Source: Kiritimatiellia bacterium (GTDB lineage: Bacteria > Verrucomicrobiota > Kiritimatiellia > WLWN01). Taken from it: a stretch of 64,000 nt of DNA. The stretch spans positions 1,484,538 through 1,548,537 of the forward strand of contig WLWN01000001.1 of the NCBI GenBank assembly GCA_012103575.1, written 5' to 3'. Below are positions 4,320 to 63,333 of the stretch, in pieces (position 1 is the first letter of the stretch; every line of letters starts with the position of its first letter). A program made the position numbers and the translations under genes. Under the pieces are notes generated by a model. It saw nothing but the letters and a program-made list of their open reading frames with translations. It did not search any database and was not told the DNA's origin.

Positions 4320-7300
4320 AACGCTTTCCTTGAAGTTCATTGAGTAAATCGCGTTTAACATCTTCATCAGATAATGCGTCAATATCTCTATATACGGAAA
4401 CATCAAACAAATCCCCATCGAATAATTCGATCAACGCAATCTCCGTTTCTGTATCTATTTCTTCGGTTGGCTCCATCAGCCTATCCTGTGAGGGCACTGT
4501 TTGCTGATATAAGTCCTCCCAGGGGATGATCTCTAAAACGTGATCTGTTAATCGAGGCGCCGTTGGATAGTCGAACAATACTGTATCGGACAAGGTGGTC
4601 AGTCCGAACTGTCTGCGACAATCCTGTATCAGTTTTTCTGCTTGAATCGACTCCATGCCCATATTAAAAAATCCCGTTTCCAGATCAACGTCTTCGGTCG
4701 ATGCAAATCCTAAGAGCGCCTTGACTTGTTCTACGATCCATTCTTCTACTTCTTCTTTTCTATCCATGTCCGATAGATCGAGCAATGCTGCTACAAAAGT
4801 AGAGGTCTCTGACCTCGATGGAGGGGGGACCCTTTCAACCCCATTAGCCTGTTTAAGAAAAGAGGTGTCCTCTTTTGCCTGATCTGATACGGATATTATG
4901 GGGCCGGCAAGGGGGTTGCTTAGCCTGCCATTTTGACCCCCGCCTTCTTCTTTTTTGGCTTTGTTTTTCTCGACAATTTCTGTCATCCAATACCGTCTCT
5001 TCAAAAACGGATAGTTAGGCAGAGGCAAACATACACTCCCCCCATTATCTTCATATAGCCTTTCCCAGGGGATCAGCGTCCCCTGCACCCACAGCTGGGC
5101 TAATCGTTCCATCTTTCTTTTTTTCAGTAAGCTAGCCAAATAGTCCTGATCCTCTTTCACACCGTTCAACTTGAGCGCAGCTCCCACTTTTTCCGTATCC
5201 GCTTCATAATATTTCGTCTCTCGACCACCATTCCGGTCCTGATTGACATAGCCCTTCAATTGCTCGATCAAATCCGGTGTATCATTGACAACAAAGGCTA
5301 AACGATGGCGAAACAAGGCCCGTTTGGTTTGCAGGGTAAAGGCTAGATGCTGGATACTGGATACTGGACGCTGGATATTTGATTTTAAATACCCATGAAG
5401 ATTTCTGGCCAGTTCAAGCAGTTGGGACCGCACATGAGCCGAAAGCGGGATAACCACAGAAGATACCGCCCCGTCCATTGTTCGACCGTCTACCGGTTCA
5501 CCTTTCGACCTTTCACCTTTTTGACTTTTTGACTCATCGAGGTATTCCTCGATAATTACATGCACATTCACGCCACCGGCTCCAAAAGAACTGATTCCCG
5601 CACGTCGAGGCCATGCTTTCCCCTCTAGCCGAGGTTGTTCCCAAGTCGTCTTTTTTTCCTGAACATAAAAGGAAGAATTTTTGAAATCTATATTCGGATT
5701 CAACGGGCCATGTAATAAAGAAGGGACCAAAGTTTGGTGCTGCATTTGCAAAACCGTTTTTGTCAATTGCCCAATCCCGGCAGCCGCTTCCCCATGGCCG
5801 ATGTTCGATTTCACCGATCCGATCGCGCAGAATTGTTTTTTGTCTGTATGCTGTGTATAAACGTCCATAAGCCCTTGAATTTCGATCGGATCACCTAAAG
5901 CCGTCCCGGTTCCGTGCGCCTCAACATAGCTAATACTCTCAGGAGAAATACGGGCTTGGGCCAGCGCAGCTCCAATCGCTTTTGATTGAGATACAGGATT
6001 AGGTACTGTATAACTCTGAGTTTTGCCGTCATGGCTCACGCCCGTTCCTTTAATCACCGCTAAAATAGAATCCCCATCCGCTTTGGCCCGTTGATAAGGC
6101 TTCAACAATACCACCCCAACTCCTTCACTGGGAACATAGCCATCCCCATCAGCTGCAAACGCATGACAACGGCCATCACTGGAAGCAAAACCACCGGAGC
6201 AAAGGGTCGCATATTTACTCGGATGAAGCGTTAAATTAACGCCCCCCGCCAAGGCCAGACTACACGCTCCTCGCTTCAAGTTTTCACAGGCTTCATGAAT
6301 CGCAAATAAAGAGGAGGCACAGGCCGTATCCAGGGTAAAACTCGGTCCGGTGAAATTAAAAAAATAAGAAACCCGATTGGCAATCGAAAAGGTTTGTGAA
6401 TTCGCCGGATAACTGGGGCCAGGGCCAGCGGCCTCGGCCATCAACAATTGGTAATTATTAAAGGTGACACCGGCAAACACCCCGATGTTTCGGGCTTCCC
6501 TTTGCCAATGAGGATGGATAAAGCCGGCTGTTTCCAGACATCCCCAAGCCATTTCCAGGAAAAGCCGCTCCTGGGGATCCATAAAACGTGCGTCTTGAGG
6601 CGAAATATTAAAAAAGAGCGGGTCAAATTGATCCACCCCATCAAGAAACCCTCCCCATTTGCAATAGAGGGAATCCGTCCGGCCTTTTTCGGTATTAAAA
6701 TATGAACGATAATCAAATCTGTCTCGTGGAATCTCGGTAATACAATCCTTCCCCTGACTCAAATTATCCCAAAATGCCATCAGATCAGGGGCCTGTGGAT
6801 ATCGTCCACTCATCCCAATAATCGCGATATCCTCATTGGAAACCTGTTTTCCGGAGAACCTCGCGGAGAAACGCGCATGCCCAAAGGAGGTCAGATCCTT
6901 GGAGTGTTGTACCTTGACCTTGCCATTCAATGAGCGCGCACCTATTTTCCGGGGCTGCTCTGCGATCATCATATCTGCAGCATAAGCCTCGCTTAAAAAC
7001 TTCGCCAGAGAAGACAAGGTTTTGTATTTAAAAAAGAGGGTGGCATCTAATTTACCCAACCACTTTTCTACTTGTTGATTCAACGTCGTAATCATAATCG
7101 AATCTAAGCCCAATTCTTCCAGATCGGCTTCTACATTGATTTTTTCCTTGGGAATTTGTGTGATTTCAGTAACGATAGATGTCAACTTATTCAGCGCATA
7201 AGACCTTGCATCGACGTTGGAGAGCTCATTTTTTCCTTGGACTTCTTTATCCGTCTGATTACCGGCGCGGGCTTCTTGCTCTTGGGTGGAATCTTCGGTA

Positions 7301-10300
7301 AAGGGTTCCAGATATGTCTGCATTTCCATGGCCTTCATGCGCACACAAACATGGCCGAGATCATCGCATAGATCTATATCCAATTTCAGCGCCTGTTTCG
7401 ATGATGGGCTGCCCTGGCAGGATTGCACCCACGCCCACATCGACTCGGTACAACGATCAAGGATTTCAAGGCGTTCCAAGGAGGCTAAGAAGGGTTCTTG
7501 GTCTCCTCCTTCGCTCAAAGAGCTGCGAAAGACAGGCTTGGTTATTGGCTTGTCCTCCATAGCTTCCCCCTTCGCGCAGCGCGCGGCGGAGGAAAAGTCG
7601 GTGAACAAGTCAGCCGAGGAGGATTGTTGGTTAGCAAAGTTTAAGCCGATAGAGGCCTGAAGAGCCGAGTCCAACAGGCTGGGGTGCAGGGTGAACGGGT
7701 CCTTCGTATCTGCTATTGAGGAAGGCAGCGTCAGCTTGGCCAACACTTTATTCTCACCAACATAAAGTTTTTCGATCCCTTTATGAGCAGGCCCATACTC
7801 AATACCCATCCTTTTAAAGGCTGCATAGCACTCATCAGCGCTTAAAACACGTTGAGTACATGTTTCCTGTAGACCTTGGACATCGATGGGTTCAGCGGTT
7901 GGAGCCCCCTCAGAGGTCTCGACTCCACACACTTCCACCACCCCTTGACTATGTACAACTCTGGTATCCATGCCGTCGCGAAGCTGTTGTTGTGGAACCG
8001 TAGTTACGGAACCGTTGTCCTTCTCTAGCTCGCTATAGATTTCGTACTGAATCTCCCCATTCTCTTCGGGGAAGAGCCCAATATTCACCTGCCTGGGGTG
8101 GCCATTCACCGCAATCGGCATGGCCCAAACAACATTTTTAAGCTCAATTCTCTGAGGATCTTTGGCCCACTCTCCACAGGCTTGTTTGACGGCTTCTCGG
8201 GCCATTTCCAGATAAGCCGCGCCAGGGAGAACTTTTTCGCCTCTCACCTGGTGATCGGCAAAGAAAAACTCTTTGCCCGTAAAGGTTGAACTGAAACGCA
8301 GCTCGGATACGTCCGAGGTATTTTCATGCAACAACGGATGGAGTTCTTTCCCCGTTTCCGCATTCCGAACTCCGGACTCCGCATTTCCTTTGATCCAATA
8401 TCGTACCCTCGCAAACGGATAGGAGGGAAGACTGATGCGACGAAGTGGGGTATCGCCATACAACTTGTTCCAGTCAAGAATCAGACCCTTAACCCATAGA
8501 TCTAAGAGTTTGGAGTATTTCCCTTTACGAACCCACATATCAATGATTTTGGCCATGTCCTCATCGGCCGTGAAGACGTCCAATGTCTCTTTATTTCGTT
8601 TCACTTGGCCCAAATAAAGATCCTCCACATCTTCTTTACCATCCATAAAACGTTGGAGCTTTTCTTTAAGTTCTTCCATGGAATGAACTATCAAACCCAA
8701 CCGCTCTTCCATGGCTTCGCGACCGACCTGGAGGGTGTAGGCCACATCTTGAAGACATGGCGTCAAAGGTTGGAGATAATCAATAAGATGTTGGACATAG
8801 GCTTTGAGCCGGTCTTCATCTTTCGCCGACAGCACGATCAAATAGGGACCTTCTTTACTTTGTGACTTTGGACCTTCAACCTTTGACTCATCGAGGTATT
8901 CCTCGATGACCGCATGCGCATTCACCCCTCCCGCTCCAAACGAAGAGACTCCGGCAATCCGAGGGTATTCTTTTGTTTCCCCCTTGATCGTAAGGGTGGG
9001 TCGCTTCCAGTCCTCAAGTTGTTGTTGGACAATAAACGGCGTTTTGCTAAAATGAATGTTCGGATTCAATTCCATGGCATGCAGGCTGGGAGCAAGCTGC
9101 CCATACTTCATTTGGAGCACAATCTTAGTAAGCCCCGCAATCCCCGCCGCCGCTTCCAGGTGACCCACATTGGATTTTGCCGAACCCAACGCACAGAAGC
9201 CGGTATCCAACGTATCCTTTTGAAAAGCCTGTGTCAGTCCTGTCACTTCAATCGGATCGCCTAACTCCGTCCCGGTTCCATGCGCCTCCATATAACTAAC
9301 GCTCCGAGCGTCAATCCCGGCTTTTTCCAATGTCTCTCGAATCAGCGCACCCTGGGCTTTGGGGCTGGGAACCGTATAGCCATTGGTTTTACCACCATGA
9401 TTCACACTGGTTGCGCGGATCACAGCGTAAATGTGGTCCTGATCTTCAATCGCTTTCGATAATCTTTTCAGCAACACGACTCCAACACCTTCTCCAGGAA
9501 CAAACCCATTCCCCCCTTTCCCAAAACTTTTGCACTGTCCATCTTTCGAGAGCATCTGTTGTGCGCATAGCTCTATATACGTCGAAGGATGAAGATATAA
9601 ATTCACTCCACCCGCTATCGCCAATTCGCATGCTCCGTGGCGCAAGTGCTCACACGCTTCATGAATCGCGGTTAACGAGGAGGAACACATCGTATCAATC
9701 GGCATACTGGGGCCTTGTATATTCAGGAGATAGGAGACACGGTTGGCCACCGAACTGAATGATGTATGCGGAGAGATACCCCCCCTCTGTTTCTTCAGTT
9801 CAGGCCCATACAAATTAAACCCAGTTTTGGTAATGCCTGCAAAAACACCAACACGTTGGTTAAACTGTGTTGCGAGATGCTCTCTGGTGCAGCCCGCGTC
9901 TTCTAAGGCTTCCCAGCAGGACTGAAGAAACAGCCGTTCCTGCGGATCTATATTCATCGCTTCCCGGGGTGAAATATTAAAAAAGAGCGGATCAAAGTCC
10001 GCAAAGCCTTCCAAAAAACTCCCCCATTTGCTGTAACTCTTTCCTTGAGCCACTGCTTCCTGGGGATCCTCATGGAAAAAGCCATTCAACGACCAACGTT
10101 CCGGAGGAATCTCGGTAATACAGTCTTTGCCGGACTTTAAATGCTCCCAATATTCTTCTATCGTGTTGGCTTGGGGATAACGGCCGCTCATCCCGATAAT
10201 AGCCATCGGATCTTGAGTTCCGGTTCTGCTCATGCTCACGGAAAGTCCACGCCCGCAACCTTGCGTTGATTTTAGAGCCCTCAGAACGGGAAACTCTTCG

Positions 10301-13300
10301 GCTATAGACAGTACCGATCGATTCGGAAGCAGGTACGCTTGCTCTTGAAGACCCGCCCATTGAGCACAAGCTTGCGGATAATCAGCTATAAAATAGTCTG
10401 TTAATGCTTTTAATGTTTGATATTCAAAAAACAAGGTTTTGGAAATCTCTCCAAACACGCCTTCCAGTTTCTGATTCAGCTGCGTGATCAATATCGAGTC
10501 GATCCCATAACGCTCCAAGGGCTCTTCCGAATCGATTTTCGAGATAGATAGCTTGATCATTTCTCCAAACAGTTTTTTGAATTCATACAAGGTTTTTTCT
10601 TGCAAAAGGTGAGGGTCCATGGCCGGTACGGGTGATTCTTTGACAGGCACTACGGTTTGATCGGCAAGGAAAACGTTTCTTATCTTCTCTACATCCCCCT
10701 CCATGACCATCACTTGAGAGGTTCCCGAAGATAAGCCCTGATAAAACGCTTCGATCCCGGTGGATGTTTGCATCGCCACCATGCCCGTTCTCTCTGTGAT
10801 CATCTGCTCGGTGGCTTCATCCACGCTCATTCCCCCTTCTTTCCATAACGGCCAATTCATCGAAAGCGTTTGGCCGCTTCTCTCTGAGTCTATTCGAACA
10901 TTGCGATACCTGGCAAAAGTATCCATAAACGCATTGGCCGTGGCGTAGTCCGCTTGACCCACGTTGCCGATAGCTCCGGATACGGAGGAAAACAAAACAA
11001 AAAAGTCTAAAGACAGATCCTGCGTGGCTTCATCCAGATAAATGACTCCCTCCACCTTCGGCTTTAGCGTCTCTTCAAACTCTTCCCGGGGTTTCTTCAA
11101 AATAAAATTGTCCCGAATCAATCCCGCGCTATGAAGAATGCCATTGATTCCCCCAAAATCGTTTCGAGTCTCTTCAATGAGCCTTTCAACCGCTTGTTGA
11201 TCGGAAACATCCACAGTATGGTATTCAACGTTTGCTCCCAGGCTTTCTAATTCTTTGAGCTTTTCTTTGATCGGTTCGCTGAGCTCTGAACGACCCGTGA
11301 GGATCAGTCTTGCGCTTTTCGTTCTTTCCGCAATCTCTTTGGCAAAGATCAGGCCCAGTCCTCCAGCGCCACCGGTGATTAAATAGACACCTCCTTCTTT
11401 CCAGGGAATCTCTTTCTGAGCATGAGCCGTTGACCTTTCTTCAAAAACCTGCACTAGACGTTTGGTTCCTTCATAGCGAATACACTGATCTTCCGGACAT
11501 TTTACATTCTCTTGGAGTCTAGAGATGATTTCTTTGGGTGGTTCTTCTTCGCCCACTGCAATCACCTGACCCATGAGTTTAGGGTTTTCCAAATGAGCGG
11601 TCTTTAACAACCCTGAAACCCCTGAAAAAGTTTGTTCGAACCCTTCAGCGGGAACCAATACCTGGAGCAAAACAGGACCTTCAGGTTTGCCCTCCACTAT
11701 CTTCTGAGTGCGTTTAAACAGGTCCAAGGCAAACTCTTCAAAGCGTTTTCCAAGCCTTTTTTGATCCGGCTTCAGTTCTATAAAAGATCGTTCAGAGGCT
11801 CTATGACCTACGGATTCATTCCTTTGAGTTAAACCGCACAAGAACACTTGATGGTCCGCATATTCGGGGATGTTTTGCTTTGGATCAACCGCTCTTTCTC
11901 GCCAAACCGGCTGGAACATCAAAGTCCCTGTCGTTTCCGATTTTTCTAAGACTCCTTCCGGGGTTTGGGAAAAGAAATCTCTCAGCTTCACACACACCTT
12001 CCCATTCTCATCACACAGATCAATGTCCAACTTCTGGACACGGGCCGTTGTTCCGCTGCTACCGGAACGGTGTACATGAGCCCACATTTTTTCTGAGCAG
12101 TAATCTATGATTTCAAGGCGGTTCAAGGAGGCTAAGAAGGGTTCTTGGTTTCCTTCTTTGCTCAAAGAGCTGCGAAGGACAGGCTTGGTTGTTGGGTTGT
12201 CCTCCATAGCTTTCTCCTCCGCCAAGCCTTTAGTGAACAAGTCAGCGGAGGCAGATTTTTGGTTCGTAAAGCCTGAGCCGATAGCAGCTTGAAGAGCTGA
12301 ATCCAAAAGGCTGGGATGAAGGGTGAATTGGTCTTTGGTCTCCAACACGCAAGAAGGGATCTTTAATTGGGCCAACACTTCATCATCGCCAACATAGAGT
12401 TTTTCTATTCCTTGGTGAGCGGGACCATATTCAATGCCTATTTTTTTAAAGACCGTATAGCATTCCTCGGCGCTTAAAACACGTTGAGTACACGTTTCCT
12501 GAAGGGCTTTCAGATCGAGCTTAGGGTGTTGGTCCGCTGAGGCGAACACCGCCACCCCTTGACTGTGCACGACGATTTCATCTTTTGAACTTTTTTCGTG
12601 TTTCGAATCTCGAAGTTCGAATTTCCCATCCACCGGAGGGGCCGTGTAGATTTCATAGGCGATTTCTCCATTATCTTCAGGGTAAAGCCCAATATGGACA
12701 TCCTGAGGTTGATCGTCCACAGCAAACGGCCACGCCCACACCACATTTTTGAGCTCTATTATTTGATTCTCTTTAGGAAATTCTCCAGAAGCCTGCTCTA
12801 CTGCCGCGCGCGCCATCTCCAGGTAAGCGACTCCAGGTAAAACCTTTTCTCCCTTTACCTGATGATCTTCCAAAAAGAACTCCTTACCGGTAAACATAGA
12901 GCTGAATCGCTGCTCTTCCAATGTCGAGGTATTCTCATGAACGAACGGATGCAGCCTCTTACTGACCATATCTTCGGCCATGCCGTTGGCTTGGCAAACT
13001 TGGTAAGCCTCTGACTTCTGTCTTCTGCCCTCTGTCCGTTCTACCCAATATCGCTCTCTTTCAAAGGGGTACGTAGGAAGGGATACCCTGTAACTAATTT
13101 TTGGATTGGCAAGGTTCGACCAATTCACCTTATAGCCCTGAACAAAAGCTTCTGCTAGTGTGAATAAATCTTTGTGATAGTTCGACTCATCTTTTGTCCG
13201 TTTATTTTCAAGTTTCGCTAAAATTTGATCACATTTTTCTTTGGTCTCTGTTGAGGCTTTAGAAGACCTTGAACTATACATGACTGAGTCCCGGCATGTT

Positions 13301-14904
13301 TTTCCCGTTAAAATACGCAGAATTTTGTTTCGCAAATCTTGTGCATCTTTTACAACGCAAGCAAAACGATACTTAAAATGCTTGCGCCCGACCTGCAAGG
13401 TATAAGCGATATCACGAATTGAAGGCTGTTCTCCAACCGCTTCGAACCAATCTGATAAATCATTGATTTTTTGGTTAAGAGACCCTTCTGTTTTAGCGGA
13501 TAGAGGGATTAAATAACATGGTGCCTTTTCTTTTCCCTCACGCCTCCCCTGTTCCGGAGCTTCCTCCAAGATTAAAAAAGAATTGGTTCCGCCTATACCT
13601 AAAGAATTTATACACGCTCGCCTGGGGCTTTGGTCTTTCACGGTCCATGGTTTAAGCTTTGTGTTTACATAAAAAGGTGTTTCGTTAAAATCAATCTTAG
13701 GGTTGGCCGTCTTATAGTTTATACAAGGGACTAAGGTTTTGTGTTTTAGACACATCGCTGTTTTTATCAAACTAGCAACTCCCGCTGCGATATCTAGATG
13801 ACCTATATTGTTTTTAACAGAACCCAACGCACAATAGTCCCCTTTATGCGTGGCAGGAGAATCAAACATGCGTGTTAAGGCTGTCACTTCCACCGGATCG
13901 CCCATAGCGGTGCCTGTACCATGCGCCTCAACATAATTCACGGTCTTGGGAGAAACCTTGGCCTTCTCAAAGGCTTTGCGCATACAACGCACTTGTCCGG
14001 TAGCCGTTGTGGCCATGTAGCTCATCTTCTGGCCACCGTCATTATTGAAAGCAGACCCTTTGATCACTGCATAGATTTGGTCATGATCCCTCATGGCCTG
14101 TTCCAGGGGCTTTAACAAAACTAACCCTAAGCCACTCCCAAAAACGATCCCTTGGGCATCGGCGTCAAACGCACGAACGTGACCATCATGGGAGAAGATG
14201 CTGTCTTTCTTTAAAGCATAGCCCACTCGATGGGGGATTCGGATATTCACGCCTCCGGCCAAGGCCATATCGCATTCCTGATGCAGAATACTTTGACACG
14301 CCAGATGAACCGCCACCAAAGAGGTCGAACAGGCCGTCTGCACGTTGATGCTTGGGCCTTTGATGTTCAATTTATAAGAAACCCTTGTACTGACAAAATC
14401 TTTATCATTGCCCAGGTGCTCTATGCCGCCTGTTGCACCACGGATCGTGGAATCATATCTCAGGCATTCCAGCAAATAATTGCTCACAGCTCCACCCGAA
14501 CCGCTAAAGACTCCAACCATAGGCACCAGCTTCTCTGGCACATAACCGGCATCCTCGAACGTGGCCCACGCACATTCGAGTAACAAGCGTTGTTGAGGAT
14601 CTAGTACTTTGGCTTCAACTGGAGGTATATTAAAAAAAGAGGCATCAAACTTGTCTATATCATCTAAAACAGGAGCGGCCTTAATGTAATGGGCCGCTTG
14701 GATAAAAGATTCTTCTACACCGGCTTCTCTCAACTCTTCATCTCTAAAAAAGGTAATGCTTTCTTTACCTTCTTTAAGGTTTTCAAAAAATTCAGGAATG
14801 GATGAGGCGCCGGGAAAGCGTCCGCTCATCCCAATGATGGCAATATCTTCACTCAGGACCTCTTTTTTCTTCTTTAGCATGTGCATCCACATCTTATCAC
14901 TCAA
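4312..14904 (-). CDS. trans-AT type polyketide synthase, 3530 aa: KS-DH-KR-ACP-KS-DH-ACP-KS-ACP, no integrated AT domains
   Basis: Three KS domains with active-site Cys ('TACSTS', 'MCSSSL', 'TACASS') plus 'EAHGTGT' and 'N(I/V)GH' motifs. Each KS is followed by a post-KS linker ('LSAKTEGSL...AYTLQVGRKHF', 'LPxYPFxRxRYW') with no AT. DH motif 'HxxxGxxxxP' appears twice ('DHQVKGEKVLPGVAYLEMA'). KR Rossmann 'ITGGAGGLGLIFAKEIA'. ACP serines 'GIDSI', 'GLDSI', 'GMESI'. Start ATG overlaps the ACP gene stop (ATGA). Confidence 0.9.
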   Translation of the reverse strand: MSDKMWMHMLKKKKEVLSEDIAIIGMSGRFPGASSIPEFFENLKEGKESITFFRDEELREAGVEESFIQAAHYIKAAPVLDDIDKFDASFFNIPPVEAKVLDPQQRLLLECAWATFEDAGYVPEKLVPMVGVFSGSGGAVSNYLLECLRYDSTIRGATGGIEHLGNDKDFVSTRVSYKLNIKGPSINVQTACSTSLVAVHLACQSILHQECDMALAGGVNIRIPHRVGYALKKDSIFSHDGHVRAFDADAQGIVFGSGLGLVLLKPLEQAMRDHDQIYAVIKGSAFNNDGGQKMSYMATTATGQVRCMRKAFEKAKVSPKTVNYVEAHGTGTAMGDPVEVTALTRMFDSPATHKGDYCALGSVKNNIGHLDIAAGVASLIKTAMCLKHKTLVPCINYKTANPKIDFNETPFYVNTKLKPWTVKDQSPRRACINSLGIGGTNSFLILEEAPEQGRREGKEKAPCYLIPLSAKTEGSLNQKINDLSDWFEAVGEQPSIRDIAYTLQVGRKHFKYRFACVVKDAQDLRNKILRILTGKTCRDSVMYSSRSSKASTETKEKCDQILAKLENKRTKDESNYHKDLFTLAEAFVQGYKVNWSNLANPKISYRVSLPTYPFERERYWVERTEGRRQKSEAYQVCQANGMAEDMVSKRLHPFVHENTSTLEEQRFSSMFTGKEFFLEDHQVKGEKVLPGVAYLEMARAAVEQASGEFPKENQIIELKNVVWAWPFAVDDQPQDVHIGLYPEDNGEIAYEIYTAPPVDGKFELRDSKHEKSSKDEIVVHSQGVAVFASADQHPKLDLKALQETCTQRVLSAEECYTVFKKIGIEYGPAHQGIEKLYVGDDEVLAQLKIPSCVLETKDQFTLHPSLLDSALQAAIGSGFTNQKSASADLFTKGLAEEKAMEDNPTTKPVLRSSLSKEGNQEPFLASLNRLEIIDYCSEKMWAHVHRSGSSGTTARVQKLDIDLCDENGKVCVKLRDFFSQTPEGVLEKSETTGTLMFQPVWRERAVDPKQNIPEYADHQVFLCGLTQRNESVGHRASERSFIELKPDQKRLGKRFEEFALDLFKRTQKIVEGKPEGPVLLQVLVPAEGFEQTFSGVSGLLKTAHLENPKLMGQVIAVGEEEPPKEIISRLQENVKCPEDQCIRYEGTKRLVQVFEERSTAHAQKEIPWKEGGVYLITGGAGGLGLIFAKEIAERTKSARLILTGRSELSEPIKEKLKELESLGANVEYHTVDVSDQQAVERLIEETRNDFGGINGILHSAGLIRDNFILKKPREEFEETLKPKVEGVIYLDEATQDLSLDFFVLFSSVSGAIGNVGQADYATANAFMDTFARYRNVRIDSERSGQTLSMNWPLWKEGGMSVDEATEQMITERTGMVAMQTSTGIEAFYQGLSSGTSQVMVMEGDVEKIRNVFLADQTVVPVKESPVPAMDPHLLQEKTLYEFKKLFGEMIKLSISKIDSEEPLERYGIDSILITQLNQKLEGVFGEISKTLFFEYQTLKALTDYFIADYPQACAQWAGLQEQAYLLPNRSVLSIAEEFPVLRALKSTQGCGRGLSVSMSRTGTQDPMAIIGMSGRYPQANTIEEYWEHLKSGKDCITEIPPERWSLNGFFHEDPQEAVAQGKSYSKWGSFLEGFADFDPLFFNISPREAMNIDPQERLFLQSCWEALEDAGCTREHLATQFNQRVGVFAGITKTGFNLYGPELKKQRGGISPHTSFSSVANRVSYLLNIQGPSMPIDTMCSSSLTAIHEACEHLRHGACELAIAGGVNLYLHPSTYIELCAQQMLSKDGQCKSFGKGGNGFVPGEGVGVVLLKRLSKAIEDQDHIYAVIRATSVNHGGKTNGYTVPSPKAQGALIRETLEKAGIDARSVSYMEAHGTGTELGDPIEVTGLTQAFQKDTLDTGFCALGSAKSNVGHLEAAAGIAGLTKIVLQMKYGQLAPSLHAMELNPNIHFSKTPFIVQQQLEDWKRPTLTIKGETKEYPRIAGVSSFGAGGVNAHAVIEEYLDESKVEGPKSQSKEGPYLIVLSAKDEDRLKAYVQHLIDYLQPLTPCLQDVAYTLQVGREAMEERLGLIVHSMEELKEKLQRFMDGKEDVEDLYLGQVKRNKETLDVFTADEDMAKIIDMWVRKGKYSKLLDLWVKGLILDWNKLYGDTPLRRISLPSYPFARVRYWIKGNAESGVRNAETGKELHPLLHENTSDVSELRFSSTFTGKEFFFADHQVRGEKVLPGAAYLEMAREAVKQACGEWAKDPQRIELKNVVWAMPIAVNGHPRQVNIGLFPEENGEIQYEIYSELEKDNGSVTTVPQQQLRDGMDTRVVHSQGVVEVCGVETSEGAPTAEPIDVQGLQETCTQRVLSADECYAAFKRMGIEYGPAHKGIEKLYVGENKVLAKLTLPSSIADTKDPFTLHPSLLDSALQASIGLNFANQQSSSADLFTDFSSAARCAKGEAMEDKPITKPVFRSSLSEGGDQEPFLASLERLEILDRCTESMWAWVQSCQGSPSSKQALKLDIDLCDDLGHVCVRMKAMEMQTYLEPFTEDSTQEQEARAGNQTDKEVQGKNELSNVDARSYALNKLTSIVTEITQIPKEKINVEADLEELGLDSIMITTLNQQVEKWLGKLDATLFFKYKTLSSLAKFLSEAYAADMMIAEQPRKIGARSLNGKVKVQHSKDLTSFGHARFSARFSGKQVSNEDIAIIGMSGRYPQAPDLMAFWDNLSQGKDCITEIPRDRFDYRSYFNTEKGRTDSLYCKWGGFLDGVDQFDPLFFNISPQDARFMDPQERLFLEMAWGCLETAGFIHPHWQREARNIGVFAGVTFNNYQLLMAEAAGPGPSYPANSQTFSIANRVSYFFNFTGPSFTLDTACASSLFAIHEACENLKRGACSLALAGGVNLTLHPSKYATLCSGGFASSDGRCHAFAADGDGYVPSEGVGVVLLKPYQRAKADGDSILAVIKGTGVSHDGKTQSYTVPNPVSQSKAIGAALAQARISPESISYVEAHGTGTALGDPIEIQGLMDVYTQHTDKKQFCAIGSVKSNIGHGEAAAGIGQLTKTVLQMQHQTLVPSLLHGPLNPNIDFKNSSFYVQEKKTTWEQPRLEGKAWPRRAGISSFGAGGVNVHVIIEEYLDESKSQKGERSKGEPVDGRTMDGAVSSVVIPLSAHVRSQLLELARNLHGYLKSNIQRPVSSIQHLAFTLQTKRALFRHRLAFVVNDTPDLIEQLKGYVNQDRNGGRETKYYEADTEKVGAALKLNGVKEDQDYLASLLKKRKMERLAQLWVQGTLIPWERLYEDNGGSVCLPLPNYPFLKRRYWMTEIVEKNKAKKEEGGGQNGRLSNPLAGPIISVSDQAKEDTSFLKQANGVERVPPPSRSETSTFVAALLDLSDMDRKEEVEEWIVEQVKALLGFASTEDVDLETGFFNMGMESIQAEKLIQDCRRQFGLTTLSDTVLFDYPTAPRLTDHVLEIIPWEDLYQQTVPSQDRLMEPTEEIDTETEIALIELFDGDLFDVSVYRDIDALSDEDVKRDLLNELQGKRYD

Positions 14905-20182: not shown

Positions 20183-20199
20183 CTTTTTTCTCCCATGGT

Positions 20200-20362
20200 C
20201 CTGGATCTGTCAGTTAAACGTGGGATTTCTGTGCGAATGCTTTGGAGGCAAAAGGTTGCAAAAAAACGCAGGCGCACCCGCTGGGTGCGTCGAGGCTTTT
20301 TTGTAATTCCTTTTGGCCCAAATGGTTCGTGCAGAAAACCGCGTTTAACTGACGGATCCAGG
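20200..20362 (+). mobile_element. MITE copy 1 (163 bp, ~45-bp imperfect terminal inverted repeats CCTGGATC(T/C)GTCAGTTAAACG..., 5-bp target-site duplication ATGGT)
   Basis: Left end 'cctggatctgtcagttaaacgtggg...', right end '...ccgcgtttaactgacggatccagg'. Flanked by ATGGT on both sides. >97% identical to copies at 53952 and 57816. Internal hairpin 'gcgcacccgctgggtgcg' bracketed by an A7 tract and a T6 tract. Sits 18 bp upstream of the LysM gene start, between murD and ftsW. Confidence 0.85.
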
Positions 20363-20405
20363 ATGGTTTGAGTGTTCAAAATATGTTTCGATATTATTTG
20401 TTTAT

Positions 20406-39378: not shown

Positions 39379-40820
39379 CTATGCGAAGGAATGGGCAATA
39401 TCTTGTATCACTTCAAACCAGCGATAACGCTTGCCAAAGTGAAGTTCAATTCGTCCGGCGTGGCGGACCAATCGAACCGCGCAATAAACGATATTTTTGA
39501 GAACCGTTTTGATTCGCCAGCACGGGATGTTGATTTTCTGCGGGGCAAGCCCAGCCCGTTTGATGACCTCTTGGCCAAGACCGCGCAATAGGTTGAAGGC
39601 CACCATGGCGCATAACAGAATAATCTTATTGGCACAGGGTCTCCCCGAAGGCAATCGCTCAACATCAAGATCGCTTTTGAGTTCACTGTGGTACTGCTCG
39701 CTGGGGCCATGTCCATGATAGAGATCTAGCACCGTCTTGGCACGACAAGAGAGGTTCGTCCACCAGGTGTTCACCTCAAGTTTAGGAACCAGAAGTTTCT
39801 GACCATCGATATCGATGGTGCGTTCAATCACTTCGAAGGCCACCGGGACACAAGGGCGGTTTTGGTCACCACCGGGATGGAAATGATCGAAAAAGCCTGT
39901 GTAAACGTTCTTGCCTTCACGACTGTCTTGTTTGTCTCCAACTCGGCGTGCAAGGGCCAGCATTTGTTCAGGACATTCGCGGCGAGGATTTCGCTTTACG
40001 ATAAAATAATGATCCCCAAAAGCGTCGAAGTTATCGGCCGCAGCGTTGCCACTATCAAGCCGAAGCAAACATTTTCCACCTAGGCCCAGGGTTTGGAGCG
40101 TTTCAACGCTGCGGGCAATAAACGCGGTCGTTCCCGACTGACAATGTTGTTTACCGGGTCGAAGTTCGCACTCAAGCATGTGGCCTTGAGTGCCCACATA
40201 GGCAAATATCGGGGCGTAACCATCATGGCCCTTCTAGGTGTAGGAAACGCCTTCTTTCGAAGAGCCTGAGTGATCCAAAGGGCTCACATCGATATCGACG
40301 GGAACAAGATCAAGCCCTTCGACATCTACCTAGCCAAAGGGGCCCAAGGAAAGAAGTTCGGTGTTGAGTTTGCGTAGCCCCACATGGGTTCTGGCTGGGG
40401 GCAGGTCGTCGAAACGACGTCGGAACACCGGCTCAGAGGCTACCCTTTTTAACTCCCCTTTTTAAGTCCAAAGGCATTCATAAAAATCTCATCACCCCGG
40501 TACAGGTCGATATCATTGAAATCGGTTCGACCGTTGCAAAGTAAGCCGATCTGGGTAAGGAGGATCTCCCGATCAGAGATCGCATCGGAGCGGCGTGGTT
40601 GAAAATTGGAGGGAAGAATCCGTTGAGCATGATCCTCAAGCAGCAGGCCGCAAAGATGATTTCCGCTTGTGCTGTTGAGTTCGCCCTTGCCAGTCTTTAT
40701 TTTATATTGTTTCATATACACACCTGTTGGGGTGGGGTTGTTTGTTTGAATACGGGTATGCTCCCCGCTTTAGCCCAACAGGTAATGAAAAATTATCAGA
40801 TTTTATCTGACGGATTCAGG
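39379..40820 (-). mobile_element. Degraded IS1380-family insertion sequence; transposase broken into at least three pieces
   Basis: 272-aa ORF 39379-40197 ('RLDSGNAAADNFDAFGDHYFIVKR', 'DLYHGHGPSEQYHSELKSD...ANKIILLCAMVAFNLLRGLG') resembles the ISEcp1-type DDE transposase middle and C-terminus. In-frame TAG at 40234-40236. N-terminal fragment ORF 40449-40721 ('LCNGRTDFNDIDLYRGDEIFMNAFGL'). Terminal IR 'CCTGAATCCGTCAGATAAAA' reads inward from 40820 and matches the MITE terminus CCTGGATCCGTCAG. Confidence 0.7.
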
Positions 40821-42412: not shown

Positions 42413-42510
42413 GAAGAGAAGAGTCAAAGGTCGAAAGTCGTAAAGTCGAAAGTCATAAAGAGAAAGAACAGTCTTGGCCTTAACGACCTTCGACTTTCGA
42501 CCAACAAAAG
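42410..42510 (+). repeat. Palindromic GTCGAAAG repeat element (copy R-c) with a 12-bp perfect stem
   Basis: 'TGAGAAGAGAAGAGTCAAAGGTCGAAAGTCGtaaagtcgaaagtcataaag...CGACTTTCGACC'. GGTCGAAAGTCG (42428-42439) pairs with CGACTTTCGACC (42491-42502). Begins at the stop codon of the ATP-grasp gene. Confidence 0.6.
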
Positions 42511-42524
42511 AAAGGAAAGATGTT

Positions 42525-42869
42525 GTGTCTAACGTTGAAACATTTGAAGATTTAAGAATTTGGCAAGAGGCTCGGGGTCTAGTAAAAGAAATATATTCAG
42601 ACGTTGGAAGAGGCACACCTGCTGGTACTGATTATGGATTTATAAGCCAAATTCAACGAGCCGGCATCTCTATCATGAACAATATCGCTGAAGGTTTCGA
42701 ACGGTCATCTGATGCTGATTTTCTAGATCTCTTGATATTTCAAAGGGGTCATGTGGAGAGGTTCGAAGCATGTACTACCCGGCAGAAGATCTGGGATATA
42801 TTACAACCGATATTGCACATCAACGACGTGATAAAGCGAAACAAATCGCGAGAGGAGTGGCATCATTAA
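42525..42869 (+). CDS. Four-helix-bundle protein (TIGR02436 / 23S rRNA intervening-sequence protein family)
   Basis: 'FEDLRIWQEARGLVKEIY...ISQIQRAGISIMNNIAEGFERSSDADFLDLL' fits the family consensus. GTG start at 42525 preceded by SD AAGGAAAG. Flanked by repeats R-c and R-d. Interrupts the ATP-grasp to alpha-E adjacency. Confidence 0.8.
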   Translation: MSNVETFEDLRIWQEARGLVKEIYSDVGRGTPAGTDYGFISQIQRAGISIMNNIAEGFERSSDADFLDLLIFQRGHVERFEACTTRQKIWDILQPILHINDVIKRNKSREEWHH

Positions 42870-42877
42870 CCCATCAT

Positions 42878-42995
42878 CTCAGACCTTGAAGACAGAGAGT
42901 CAAAAGTCGAAAGGTCTAAAGTCGAAGGAAGGAGAAAATTCTTTCTCTTATCGGCCTTGGACTTTCGACTTTCAGACCTTCGACCAAAAAGCTCC
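42878..42995 (+). repeat. Palindromic GTCGAAAG repeat element (copy R-d)
   Basis: 'agtcaaaagtcgaaaggtctaaagtcgaagg ... ccttggactttcgactttcagaccttcgacc' forms an imperfect ~18-bp stem hairpin between the four-helix-bundle gene stop and the alpha-E start. Confidence 0.6.
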
Positions 42996-42998
42996 CCC

Positions 42999-43935
42999 AT
43001 GCTAAGTCGAGTTGCAAATGCTATATACTGGATGAGCCGATATGTTGAGCGGGCCGCCAACATCGCACGCTTCATTGAAGTAAATTGGTACCTGATGCTA
43101 GATTTACCCACGGAAACCCGAGAACAATGGAAACCGCTTGTCGACGTCACGGGCGATGGAGATGTATTTAAAGAAAAATACAAAACACCGACCCGCGAAC
43201 ATGTCATCTCTTTTCTCACCTTTGAGACCTCATATGCACACTCCGTTATTTCATGTATTCAATCCGCTCGAGAAAATGCATTGGCTGTACGTGACAGAAT
43301 TTCACCTGAAATGTGGGAGCATATGAACGCTCTTTATCATCTTCTCACGGATGCATCAAAAAATGCCTATAGGCATAACGAAAACCCCGAATTTTATAAC
43401 CAGATTAAGATAGCGGGCATGTTGATGGGCGGCATTGCTCATGACACCATGAACCATGATGAAGGATGGCACTTCTTTCGATTAAGACGACAGCTCGAAC
43501 GCGCGGATAAAACGTCGCGGATGCTCGATGTAAAATACTTTATCCTTCTTCCCAGTATAGACTACGTAGGAACCCCCTACGATGATGTACAATGGGCCGC
43601 CCCTCCAATCTGTAAGTGGTCTAGAAAGTTATCGGCAACGATACGGACGCATTGCTCCAGATCGCATTGTACAAATGCTTCTTTTAGATCGAACGTTCCC
43701 CCGTTCCGCTCAGAACTGTCTGATCGCCACGGAAAATTCTCTACGGGTTATATCAAGCACGCCTATAGGAACGTTCCAAAATGAAGCCGAACAACACTTA
43801 GGGCAATTATGCTCAGAATTAATGTATACGGACGTGAGCCAAATCTTTGAAATCGGTGTCCATGAATTTGTTATTGGCCTTCAAGCAAAGATCAATTTGG
43901 CAAATAACGCTATTTTTGATACCTTCTTCGCATAA
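42999..43935 (+). pseudogene. Alpha-E domain protein (Anbu-operon gene 2), frameshifted
   Basis: Starts 'MLSRVANAIYWMSRYVERAANIARFIEVN' (ATG 42999). Frame 1 becomes junk ('CKWSRKLSATIRTHCSRSHC') after 'DDVQWAA'. The family-like C-terminus 'LQSVSGLESYRQRYGRIAPDRIVQMLLLDRTFPRSAQNCL...' continues in the +1 frame. The shift is at a C4 tract, 43600-43603. Confidence 0.7.
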
Positions 43936-48010: not shown

Positions 48011-49038
48011 ATGGTAACGCAAAATTCATCAGATTCCCTGTGGGCAAACCGATCCGACGAAGAACTGCTCAAGATACGAATATGCGATTTTAACCTTGAG
48101 ATTGAAGGATCCGAACTAGCGCCCCGTATCGACAAATTATATAAAGAACTTGAATCAAAAGGGATCTTTTTCAAACCTACCTGTTACCTGACAACGGAAT
48201 GGTTATGCCCAGATAAGATCCCCATGATTGGTATTCCATTTTGCCTGGCCCATCCACGATTAAAACAACTCGAAAGAAATATGATGCTTGAAGTTGAGGG
48301 GGGAACCGAAACAACCTGCATCCAACTTTTGCGCCATGAAATGGGCCACGCTATAAACTATGCATATCGACTCTATCGGCGTACACGTTGGCGGGAATTA
48401 TTTGGCCCTTTTTCAACTGAATACAATGAACATAACTATTACTCAAGGCCGTATAGCAAACAGTATGTCCTTCATTTACCCGATAACTATGCCCAAGCTC
48501 ATCCCGATGAAGATTTTGCCGAAACGTTTTCTGTATGGCTTACACCGAATCTTGATTGGCAAAAAAATATAAAGGATGGGGCGCGATAAAAAAGCTAGAA
48601 TACGTCAACCATCTCATGAAACAGATAGGTTCAACATCACCTCTGGTCACCCGAGGACAGAAATTATGGGCTATTCATCGACTACGATCCACACTGGCTA
48701 CCTATTATAAAAAGAAACGAGAGGAATTTGCCGAAACCTACGCAGGGTACTATGATCCCGATCTACTCAAAATATTCGCCCCTGAACCTAAAGAAACACA
48801 CGTAAAGGCTGACCGTTTTCTCCGCCAGCACCAACGTATTCTCACCGATACCGTTGCCCAATGGGCGCATGCAAGAAAATATGCTATTGACCATTTAGTA
48901 CGTCGCTTAGCAAACCGATCCAAAGAACTATCGCTCTACATTAAAGGGGAAGAGAAAGAGACGCTTCTACACATTGGCGTTTATTTAACAACCTTAATAT
49001 GTGAACAAAGAGATGTGAAAGCTCAACACAATCCATAG
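48011..49038 (+). pseudogene. Putative zinc-binding metallopeptidase (HExxH), frameshifted at an A7 tract
   Basis: 'LLRHEMGHAINYAY' zinc motif. First frame ends '...DWQKNIKDGAR*'. Downstream ORF 48556-49038 continues in the +1 frame. An A8 in place of the A7 at 48561-48567 would fuse them ('DWQKKYKGWGAIKK...'). Confidence 0.6.
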
Positions 49039-53925: not shown

Positions 53926-53951
53926 CCATCCACCTACTAAGTAGAATAAAA

Positions 53952-54114
53952 CCTGGATCCGTAAGTTAAACGTAGGATTTCTGTGCGAATGCTTTGGAGG
54001 CAAAAGGTTGCAAAAAAACGCAGGCGCACCCGCTGGGTGCGTCGAGGCTTTTTTGTAATTCCTTTTGGCCCAAATGGTTCGTGCAGAACACCGCGTTTAA
54101 CTGACGGATCCAGG
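53952..54114 (+). mobile_element. MITE copy 2 (TSD TAAAA)
   Basis: Same 163-bp element, flanked by TAAAA on both sides. Lies between convergent glnE and menE. Confidence 0.85.
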
Positions 54115-54260
54115 TAAAACACATATAACAAAAACTCTGCAGAAGCATCCGATTCCGACTTTTTATTACACAACTGATAATTTTTCGGACTATGAAAACT
54201 CGACATCTGAGTCAAATAATCATTGATGATGTGTTAGTGGACGTTCGTTAAAGTCACTTA

Positions 54261-57668: not shown

Positions 57669-57815
57669 TAACGGTATTTGGCGATCGAATGTCCTCGACT
57701 TTTCCGAAAGTTGATGTACATTTTTATCATGTTAAAAATTTTAACCCATATAGCGTGTCTTATTAACAGGGTTATTAACAGAAAAAGCAAGAAGAGTCCG
57801 TTGAAGACTTCTTCT

Positions 57816-57976
57816 TGGATCCGTCAGTTAAACGTGGGATTTCTGTGCAAATGCTTTGGAGGCAAAAGGTTGCAAAAAAACGCAGGCGCACCCGCTGGGT
57901 GCGTCGAGGCTTTTTTGTAATTCCTTTTGACCCAAATGGTTCGTGCAGAAAACCGCGTTTAACTGACGGATCCAGG
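57816..57976 (+). mobile_element. MITE copy 3 (TSD TTCTT)
   Basis: Same element with the left terminus mutated to CTTGGATCC. Flanked by TTCTT on both sides. Sits in the divergent menA/exonuclease promoter region. Confidence 0.85.
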
Positions 57977-58001
57977 TTCTTATAAGCTTTCTCTTGGGTT
58001 A

Positions 58002-61478: not shown

Positions 61479-61598
61479 CTATTGGAGCCGCTTGCGCGGC
61501 TACTACAAACCATCAAATAGCTTGACCCTATGTTTACACGTGTTTGCGTCACAAGACACATCAGCGTTTATCCATTCGGTTGGCAAGAGGGTTATTGG

Positions 61599-62402
61599 TT
61601 ATTCGTTATCAGGGTTTTCCTTGTATAATTTCATCATCGCGGTAGTAGCAACTTCAATGGCCCCTTGAATATTTTGATCAAGCTTAATCACATCTTGGCC
61701 TGGTCCTGACCAAGGTGTACGATCTGAGACCGTACAAATACAGCCTGCACGCAAACCAAACAGATTGGCCAAAGTCAAAATCGTTGAGGATTCCATTTCA
61801 ACGTTAAGCACTTTCGCCTGTTTCATATCCTCTACAAGAGGATTCATCCAACTCTGCTGGTATCCTTGAAATGACATGGGCAATAGCTTTTCATCTTTAC
61901 CGATGACTTTATTCCGAGCATAGAACCCATCCACAGACCACGTGATTCCTATGTGAAAAGAATGATCCGTCATTTTTACGGTATCGACTAACGCTGATAC
62001 AATCTCGTAATGAGCAGAAGCAGGATATGCAGGACAGATATAAGACGTTGATGTTCCTTCATCTCGAATCGATGCAGTTGTAATAACGTAGTCGCCTAAA
62101 GCAACGTCTTCAGCCAAAGCGCCGCTGTTGCCGATGCGAATAAATGTATGAGCACCTAGCTTGGCGAGTTCTTCAAACAAAACAGCCGTAGAGGGTCCAC
62201 CGACCCCTGTAGACGCGGCTGTTAAAGGCACCTCTCCTTTTTTGCCGGTATGAACAACAAATTCACGAACGCGACACACCTCATTCGCTTCATCCCATTG
62301 TTGTGAAATTTTTGGTACGCGTTCAGGATCTCCACAAAGGAATACGTAAGGGGCAATATCGCCTTCTCCACAGCCTGTAATCGGTTGCACATTCTTTTTC
62401 AT
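61599..62402 (-). CDS. Nucleoside phosphorylase, PNP/UDP family 1 (DeoD/Udp-like)
   Basis: 'GDIAPYVFLCGDPERVPKI', 'FIRIGNSGAL', 'EMESSTILTLA' match the phosphate- and ribose-binding regions of DeoD/Udp phosphorylases. Confidence 0.75.
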   Translation of the reverse strand: MKKNVQPITGCGEGDIAPYVFLCGDPERVPKISQQWDEANEVCRVREFVVHTGKKGEVPLTAASTGVGGPSTAVLFEELAKLGAHTFIRIGNSGALAEDVALGDYVITTASIRDEGTSTSYICPAYPASAHYEIVSALVDTVKMTDHSFHIGITWSVDGFYARNKVIGKDEKLLPMSFQGYQQSWMNPLVEDMKQAKVLNVEMESSTILTLANLFGLRAGCICTVSDRTPWSGPGQDVIKLDQNIQGAIEVATTAMMKLYKENPDNE

Positions 62403-62476: not shown

Positions 62477-63239
62477 CTACCTATCCCACCAAACCGTATC
62501 TGTGCTTTCAAAAAGAGCATCGGCCTCTTTCGGTCCCCAGGACCCGGCATCGTATTGATGTATAGGGATCGTGTTATCTTTTTCCCAAGCCCTTAGAACA
62601 GGGTCTACAATCTTCCAAGCAGTTTGAACCTCATCCGACCTCATAAAGAGCGTAGAATCACCACGCATGACATCCACTAAAAGACGTTCATAGGCTTCGG
62701 GCAAGGTATGTTGCCAGGTATCCGCATAGGTGAAATCCATGTCTACACTTTCCACTTGTACTTGTAAAGCCGGTCGTTTAGCAGAAAATTTTAATGAGAT
62801 CCCTTCTTCGGGCTGAATGCAAAACACGATCACATTAGGCTGTGTTTTTGTTAAATCACAAACATCCCCATCACATTCAACCGTTCGAAAAAATTCCAGT
62901 GGAGGCGTTTTAAATTGCACCACAATTTCGGCCACCCGTTCAGGTAATCGTTTACCCGTCCGAAGATAAAAGGGAACACCTGAGCATCTCCAATTCTGCA
63001 AATATCGATTCAATCACATGCTCGCGAAAAATAGCATCTGTATAATCACGACGGGCAAATCCAATAATAGCCAGCGTTTCAGGAATGAGTCCCTGGAGAT
63101 ACATCGCATATAAAGCGGGAATAAGTTTGCGGCGAGTCAAATCCCCTGACGCCCCAAAAATGGTGAGGGTTAAGGGTTCGATCACCTTACTCAAAACGAA
63201 ATCCTCAGCGATGTTATCTGCATGTATCTTATTTTTCAT
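62477..63239 (-). pseudogene. zwf: Glucose-6-phosphate 1-dehydrogenase remnant with ~750-bp internal out-of-frame deletion
   Basis: N-terminal 85 aa ('IFGASGDLTRRKLIPALYAMYLQGLIPETLAIIGFARRDY') and C-terminal 170 aa ('NWRCSGVPFYLRTGKRLPERVAEIVVQFKTPP...YERLLVDVMRGDSTLFMRSDEV...GSWGP') are present. They join near 62995-63010 in different frames. The NADP-binding-fold core and 'RIDHYLGKE' substrate site are missing. Confidence 0.8.
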
Positions 63240-63333
63240 CTTTGTGTCTATTGACGTATAGGTATGAGGAAGATAATATAAGTCTTATCAATAGTAAACA
63301 TATATGCCAACGGCACTAAGAATAGGCGTGACT

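Follow-up and report, generated by a model that had tools for sequence, protein, structure and literature searches.

The zwf gene of "Candidatus Patea custodiens" is a remnant that has lost its middle 0.8 kb

Is the zwf gene of this bacterium, which should encode glucose-6-phosphate dehydrogenase (G6PD), really destroyed, and what would its loss mean for the organism? The locus lies near one end of a 64,000-nucleotide stretch of DNA, hereafter called the window, which is part of a 3.1-Mb contig of the sponge symbiont "Ca. Patea custodiens". The compound that this symbiont makes, pateamine, is an inhibitor of eIF4A. "Ca. Patea custodiens" is a Kiritimatiellae symbiont of the sponge Mycale hentscheli (PMC7157528; PMC7196800); it corresponds to MAG 1 of Storey et al. 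2020, which is 3.14 Mb in size, 44.6% in GC and 96% complete, with a main contig of 3,096,896 bp (PMC7157528). In the papers examined on this organism, we found no mention of zwf, the pentose-phosphate pathway or pseudogenes in its genome. Our analysis indicated that its zwf is a dead remnant, from which the middle ~0.8 kb is gone.

The two zwf pieces and the block between them

A functional Zwf is one single open reading frame (ORF) of ~480–550 residues, which contains both the N- and C-terminal domains (PF00479 and PF02781; EC 1.1.1.49). Such an ORF is absent from this locus; two ORFs of 95 and 178 residues are present instead. The locus contains the following features:

63240–63303, no strand: intergenic region between the zwf remnant and a divergent msrP-like gene
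62952–63239, minus strand: N-terminal zwf remnant, 95-aa ORF with ATG start, matching Pfam G6PD_N positions 2–54 of 183 (E 1.8e-16)
62996–63006, minus strand: deletion junction, where the N frame (...E77 S78 I79) passes into the C frame (L5 Q6 N7 W8...) with a +1 shift
62477–63013, minus strand: C-terminal zwf remnant, 178-aa ORF, matching Pfam G6PD_C positions 135–296 of 296 (E 5.6e-58)
61599–62402, minus strand: intact PNP/UDP-family phosphorylase gene, 74 nt downstream of the remnant, matching Pfam PNP_UDP_1 (E 3.3e-38)

The two remnant ORFs overlap by 62 nt. The codons of the N piece start at 63239-3k and those of the C piece at 63013-3k, so the two frames are one base apart. G6PD homology in the N piece spans residues 1–79 (nt 63239–63003), among them the dinucleotide-binding motif GASGDLTRRKL; the GxxGDL(A/T)xRK motif of the zwf family is thus present, although only positions 2–54 of the 183 in the G6PD_N Rossmann fold are left. 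The last 16 codons of the N piece are out-of-frame read-through into the C piece, ending with a TAA stop at 62952. The C piece opens with TTG immediately after an in-frame TGA, and inspection of the sequence upstream of this TTG revealed no AGGAGG-like Shine-Dalgarno motif. In the C piece, homology to the C-terminal (beta+alpha) domain of G6PD covers the final 55% of that domain and involves ~174 residues, which begin at (L)QNWRCSGVPFYLRTGKRL and run up to the natural stop. In GenBank, the N piece is the hypothetical protein GKR87_07905 (NKB24282.1) and the C piece is GKR87_07900 (NKB24281.1); neither of them is flagged as a pseudogene.

To size the gap, both pieces were aligned to ten intact orthologues of 504–549 aa; 261–266 codons (~0.8 kb) are missing. 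A sequence-only reading of this DNA had proposed a loss of about 250 codons, or 750 bp; the large gap is there, and the proposed size is slightly low. Homology of the N piece ends at about Ile79 (nt 63003), and BLAST alignments with 120 further full-length proteins all end at residue 79, with one exception at residue 81. Homology of the C piece starts at about Leu5/Gln6 (nt 63001–62996), just before NWRCSGVPFYLRTGKRL. The alignment limits therefore place the join within 62996–63006, inside the interval 62995–63010 that the same reading had given.

The missing block takes the active site with it. EKPFG, RIDH(Y/F)LGKE and QNHLLQ, which in the Leuconostoc and human enzymes are the substrate-binding and catalytic elements, are invariant in eight Kiritimatiellia orthologues, and all three fall inside the block. 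EKPxG and RIDHYLGKE, two motifs of functional Zwf, are absent from the remnant, and the earlier statement that the RIDHYLGKE region was lost is borne out. The catalytic-His motif QNH(L/I)LQ is likewise absent here and invariant in the relatives (N266 H267 L268 in locus L009); its histidine corresponds to His240 of the Leuconostoc mesenteroides enzyme. An intact orthologue matches solved G6PD structures along its full length. Because the active site is deleted, the zwf locus can supply no G6PD, even if the N and C pieces were fused by frameshifting.

Intact relatives, gene order and repeated assemblies

One species-representative genome scan gave 15 loci with relatives of the gene, and the ten closest were examined. 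All ten contain one uninterrupted zwf of 504–549 aa; their labels are Kiritimatiellia, Pontiellaceae or Verrucomicrobia for nine of them and Terriglobia for one (L015). The best 120 matches of the zwf profile are also all full-length, 499–533 aa in size. The C piece is 64–67% identical to the Kiritimatiellia orthologues, and this identity, together with shared gene order, supports descent from zwf. In four of the loci (L009, L010, L011 and L014), an orthologue of the PNP/UDP-family phosphorylase, 63–66% identical to that of the window, comes next after the intact zwf. The gap between the two genes is 12 nt in L009, 13 nt in L011 and a few hundred nt in L010 and L014. One aconitase gene lies nearby on the opposite strand in L009, L011 and L014, as in the window; the L010 locus ends before any aconitase. 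Since the phosphorylase and aconitase neighbours are the same as in the relatives, the remnant is the lineage's own zwf at its original site.

Over the retained parts, the remnant and the intact Kiritimatiellia genes (the same four loci and proteins P0123–P0126) are 64–66% identical and share the GASGDLT and NWRW...YLRTGKR motifs. Different from the remnant, the relatives have one ORF of 524–549 aa with both domains complete, whereas in Patea the central codons are gone and the two ends are out of frame. The flanks differ as well. In L009 and L010, whose flanks are annotated, pntB-pntA-DUF547 lie upstream of zwf; none of these is present at the Patea locus, where the upstream neighbour of the remnant is the divergent msrP-like molybdopterin oxidoreductase gene. 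In both relatives thyA follows the phosphorylase gene, and in L009 one LTXXQ-motif gene comes after it, both before the aconitase (L009, 7337–9059; L010, 7856–8650), whereas in Patea only 120 nt (61479–61598) separate phosphorylase and aconitase. Judged from gene order, the Patea zwf locus has been remodelled in other ways besides the deletion. The 63240–63303 region presumably holds the old zwf promoter; a simple sigma-70 scan of it returned one plus-strand site only (63251–63279). The GC content of the window is ~44% (genome 44.6%), compared to 59–67% in the closest zwf-relative loci (50% in L012).

Such a gap could in principle arise during assembly, with the 0.8 kb present in the organism and collapsed or skipped by the assembler. 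The reference contig comes from a hybrid PacBio/Illumina MaSuRCA metagenome assembly, which can carry local errors, and in the same window one Alpha-E domain gene is split beside a C4 run. However, the exact 178-aa protein is recorded in 14 contigs, and all seven of those listed show the arrangement of 95-aa and 178-aa ORFs. The seven contigs come from samples SAMN12718690, -91, -92 and -93, from an independent assembly of run SRR10090328, and from the GenBank metagenome assemblies GCA_011087705.1 and GCA_012267655.1; they represent at least four sponge specimens and are 99.96–100% identical to the window across up to 11.5 kb. The junction is identical base for base in all of them (L001–L007). 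Collapse would moreover need repeats, and neither direct nor inverted repeats were found at the junction, nor any insertion-sequence end or other scar. In the collections searched, the nearest intact relative is ~67% identical. Slippage or illegitimate recombination may have produced the deletion. So far as assemblies rather than reads can answer the question, the deletion is real, assembly collapse is practically excluded, and the artefact reading has hardly any probability left. The proposal that the lesion is too large for a base-calling error holds as well, with 0.8 kb missing and the same junction in seven contigs.

Across up to 11.5 kb, the contigs differ from the window only at two positions: two contigs have a SNP at 63216, which gives Asp8Glu in the N piece, and the other SNP, at 63281, lies in the spacer upstream of the remnant. 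The junction is common to haplotypes that differ at 63216 or 63281, and we infer that the deletion is fixed in the sampled population; a minor intact allele may still be present. Both SNPs fall in or just upstream of the N remnant; this is anecdotal, yet it is what relaxed constraint would give.

Taken together, the catalytic core is gone, the halves stand in different frames, the junction is repeated across assemblies and the relatives are intact, in agreement with the original proposal that zwf was inactivated by one large internal, out-of-frame deletion. By the pseudogene criteria of Lerat and Ochman 2005, as applied in PMC9600693, the gene must be shorter than 80% of its closest intact homologues, the disruption must be real, not a sequencing or assembly error, and there must be no functional product. 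Here 253 homologous residues are left of ~518 (49%), and the junction is identical in seven contigs, as seen in assemblies, not reads; as for a product, the missing motifs entail the loss of G6PD activity.

We consider it very probable that the orthologous zwf was destroyed by a single real, population-fixed internal deletion of 261–266 codons. From the Rossmann domain this deletion would have taken the second half and from the beta+alpha domain the first 45%, and with them every motif known for glucose-6-phosphate binding or catalysis; the two ends would have been joined in different frames. Translation from the original ATG would then give a 95-residue peptide and stop. With its TTG start and no ribosome-binding site, the 178-codon C frame is probably untranslated. 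Transcription of the remnant probably continues, as a leader to the phosphorylase gene, because that gene lies only 74 nt downstream and the corresponding neighbour is 12–13 nt away in L009 and L011; the PNP/UDP-family phosphorylase probably depends on this transcription through the remnant.

Age of the remnant and the case for a retained function

Neither remnant frame has gained stops. At a conservation threshold of 98%, the C piece deviates from the consensus in one of 32 columns, by Trp to Cys in NWRW. At a threshold of 90% it deviates in four of 65 columns, one of the changes being Arg to Cys in FRIQP, and 23 of 121 homologues have as many deviations or more. By these counts there is no excess decay, and constraint is not proven either. 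Compared with the L009 clade, the zwf remnant is 64–66% identical, the PNP_UDP phosphorylase 63–66% and the aconitase 63–65%. Neither the conserved columns nor the comparison with neighbour genes shows any acceleration, and an old, eroding pseudogene was rejected. Since the remnants have not decayed further, we read the deletion as young compared with the time over which the lineage has diverged. It appears to be recent on the scale of the long Patea branch and older than the strain variants of the different sponge specimens.

Clean ORFs without excess substitutions at conserved sites would also fit selection for a retained function; recency seems the simpler explanation. Either fragment, the C half-domain or the 95 aa from the Rossmann fold, might serve as a small stand-alone or regulatory protein, or the two pieces might be fused through programmed +1 frameshifting; public databases do hold many G6PD_C-only proteins of ~180 aa. 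However, those that we checked on long contigs are halves of frameshifted full-length zwf genes, not members of a stand-alone family. The C ORF has only the TTG start, right behind a stop and with no Shine-Dalgarno motif, and it carries Cys at both the NWRW Trp and the FRIQP Arg. The sole coding SNP in 11.5 kb is non-synonymous and lies within the N piece, and no relative with the same arrangement was found among the ten loci or the best 120 profile matches. We therefore regard retention of the remnants for such functions as very improbable. The same low probability is given to the clean ORFs reflecting a new role of the G6PD C half-domain or Rossmann fragment, or an obligatory transcribed and translated leader that controls the phosphorylase gene. 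If retention were true, the gene would have been remodelled by the deletion, not simply left to decay.

Two candidates that involve the short G6PD_C proteins were rejected. The first is an ancient deletion shared with other lineages. The best non-self match of the C piece, P0002 (181 aa, 67% identical), starts at the same residue, but zwf is complete at its locus (L008), apart from a single frameshift. The second is a natural stand-alone G6PD_C family, represented by P0047, P0050 and P0092 on contigs of 65–725 kb. P0047 and P0050 each have, in the ORF upstream, the remaining part of a full-length zwf that is frameshifted; upstream of P0092, no gene is called within 1.2 kb, as would be the case for a zwf with several frameshifts. 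In L008, L025 and L026, the N-terminal part of zwf is visible directly upstream. The G6PD_C-only proteins of ~180 aa share a start at the conserved Val (GTG) of ...TETxVALR.... The split zwf genes in long-read metagenome contigs are:

L008, 8995–10546
L025, 1976–3543
L026, 2051–3597
L027, 1775–3543

Like the Patea locus, these four give a G6PD_C-only protein of ~180 aa that starts at almost the same residue. Different from it, they retain the whole 1.5-kb gene with only the frame broken, most likely by assembly indels, whereas Patea physically lacks 0.8 kb.

The surrounding window and what the loss means

Beyond zwf, the window gives little impression of a genome in heavy erosion. Some 90% of its length is covered by ORFs of at least 70 aa, and the dcw cell-division/cell-wall cluster, ddl, glnE, menA/C/E, thiI, aconitase and polyketide synthase (PKS) genes are intact. 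Other features of the window are as follows:

1–4311, minus strand: second PKS frame, open and running off the left window edge, 32–38% identical to modules of the next ORF
4312–14904, minus strand: PKS ORF of 3530 aa with repeated ketosynthase-type modules
20199–20377, 53951–54129 and 57813–57991: three copies, 90–94% identical, of one intergenic element of ~163 nt
39379–40197, minus strand: truncated transposase, a C-terminal fragment that covers only positions 178–427 of 435 of DDE_Tnp_1_4
42474–42869: 23S_rRNA_IVP-family gene, between the Alpha-E gene and the upstream ATP-grasp gene
42957–43784 and 43582–43935, plus strand: split Alpha-E domain gene, two overlapping ORFs (profile positions 1–183 and 185–294 of 294) with a frame change at ~43600 beside a CCCC run
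48011–49038, plus strand: overlapping ORFs of 192 and 160 aa, the first matching only positions 85–164 of 236 of Peptidase_Mx

The zwf remnant is the clearest lesion here, and other damage is limited to the split Alpha-E gene and the transposase fragment, in line with the earlier view of zwf as the strongest sign of decay in this DNA. The split Alpha-E gene may be another pseudogene, or else one base is wrong in the assembly. The ORF pair at 48011–49038 may be another split gene. The ORF at 40449–40721, just upstream of the transposase fragment, has no Pfam match. We also considered the 4.3-kb left end of the window, which lacks a called gene, as a sign of decay, and rejected it; it is one open PKS reading frame that runs past the window edge. 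PKS loci of "Ca. Patea custodiens" adjoin primary-metabolism genes (PMC7157528), and the PKS ORFs of the window fit this description. The ~163-nt element has terminal inverted repeats of ~24 nt (CCTGGATCCGTCAGTTAAACG ... CGTTTAACTGACGGATCCAGG) and no Rfam match; its structure resembles that of a miniature inverted-repeat transposable element. Scanning the whole window for Rfam families and tRNAs returned no matches.

Two other uncultivated sponge symbionts that make defensive polyketides, 'Ca. Thermopylae lasonolidus' (PMC9600693) and 'Ca. Synechomycale tutelaris' (bioRxiv 10.1101/2024.12.29.630706), are close points of comparison. Both are Verrucomicrobia, a lineage related to Kiritimatiellia, and both are in early genome erosion; as in Patea, they have primary-metabolism genes truncated to well under 80% of homologue length. 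These genomes are reported to have ~16% pseudogenes, ~72% coding density or many insertion-element matches (PMC9600693; bioRxiv 10.1101/2024.12.29.630706). In contrast, almost all housekeeping genes in the Patea window are intact. The remnant of zwf is an ordinary pseudogene, recognised here for the first time, in the genome of a known symbiont.

Does the real deletion have any metabolic effect? It would have none if a second, unrelated or horizontally acquired zwf lay elsewhere in the genome, or if another route led to 6-phosphogluconate. Some relatives are multi-copy (one Pontiella desulfatans match is named 'Glucose-6-phosphate 1-dehydrogenase 2'), and redundancy is a common reason for gene loss. 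However, besides the remnant, no protein of the GKR87 genome or of the 3,096,896-bp contig appears among the best 120 matches of the C-piece or Kiritimatiellia zwf profile search, which sees close paralogues only. We consider such a bypass unlikely, though clearly less so than an assembly artefact or a retained function. No pentose-phosphate genes were found within the 64-kb window.

The sequence-only reading had also taken the loss as a hint of host dependence. E. coli zwf mutants are viable, many bacteria make pentoses via the non-oxidative branch, and zwf is absent from many bacteria. Because zwf is dispensable in E. coli and missing from many genomes, its loss alone does not show host dependence.

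For annotation, a single zwf pseudogene should replace the entries GKR87_07900 and GKR87_07905, and metabolic reconstructions of "Ca. Patea custodiens" should count no G6PD at the zwf locus. If the rest of the genome is also without zwf, the organism would have no entry into the oxidative pentose-phosphate or Entner-Doudoroff pathways, and NADPH would be needed from elsewhere; its source bears on cultivation attempts and on models of reducing power for polyketide synthesis. The original papers do not describe this 3.1-Mb genome as eroding; the deletion is a small but well-documented sign that the loss of primary-metabolism genes has started in it.
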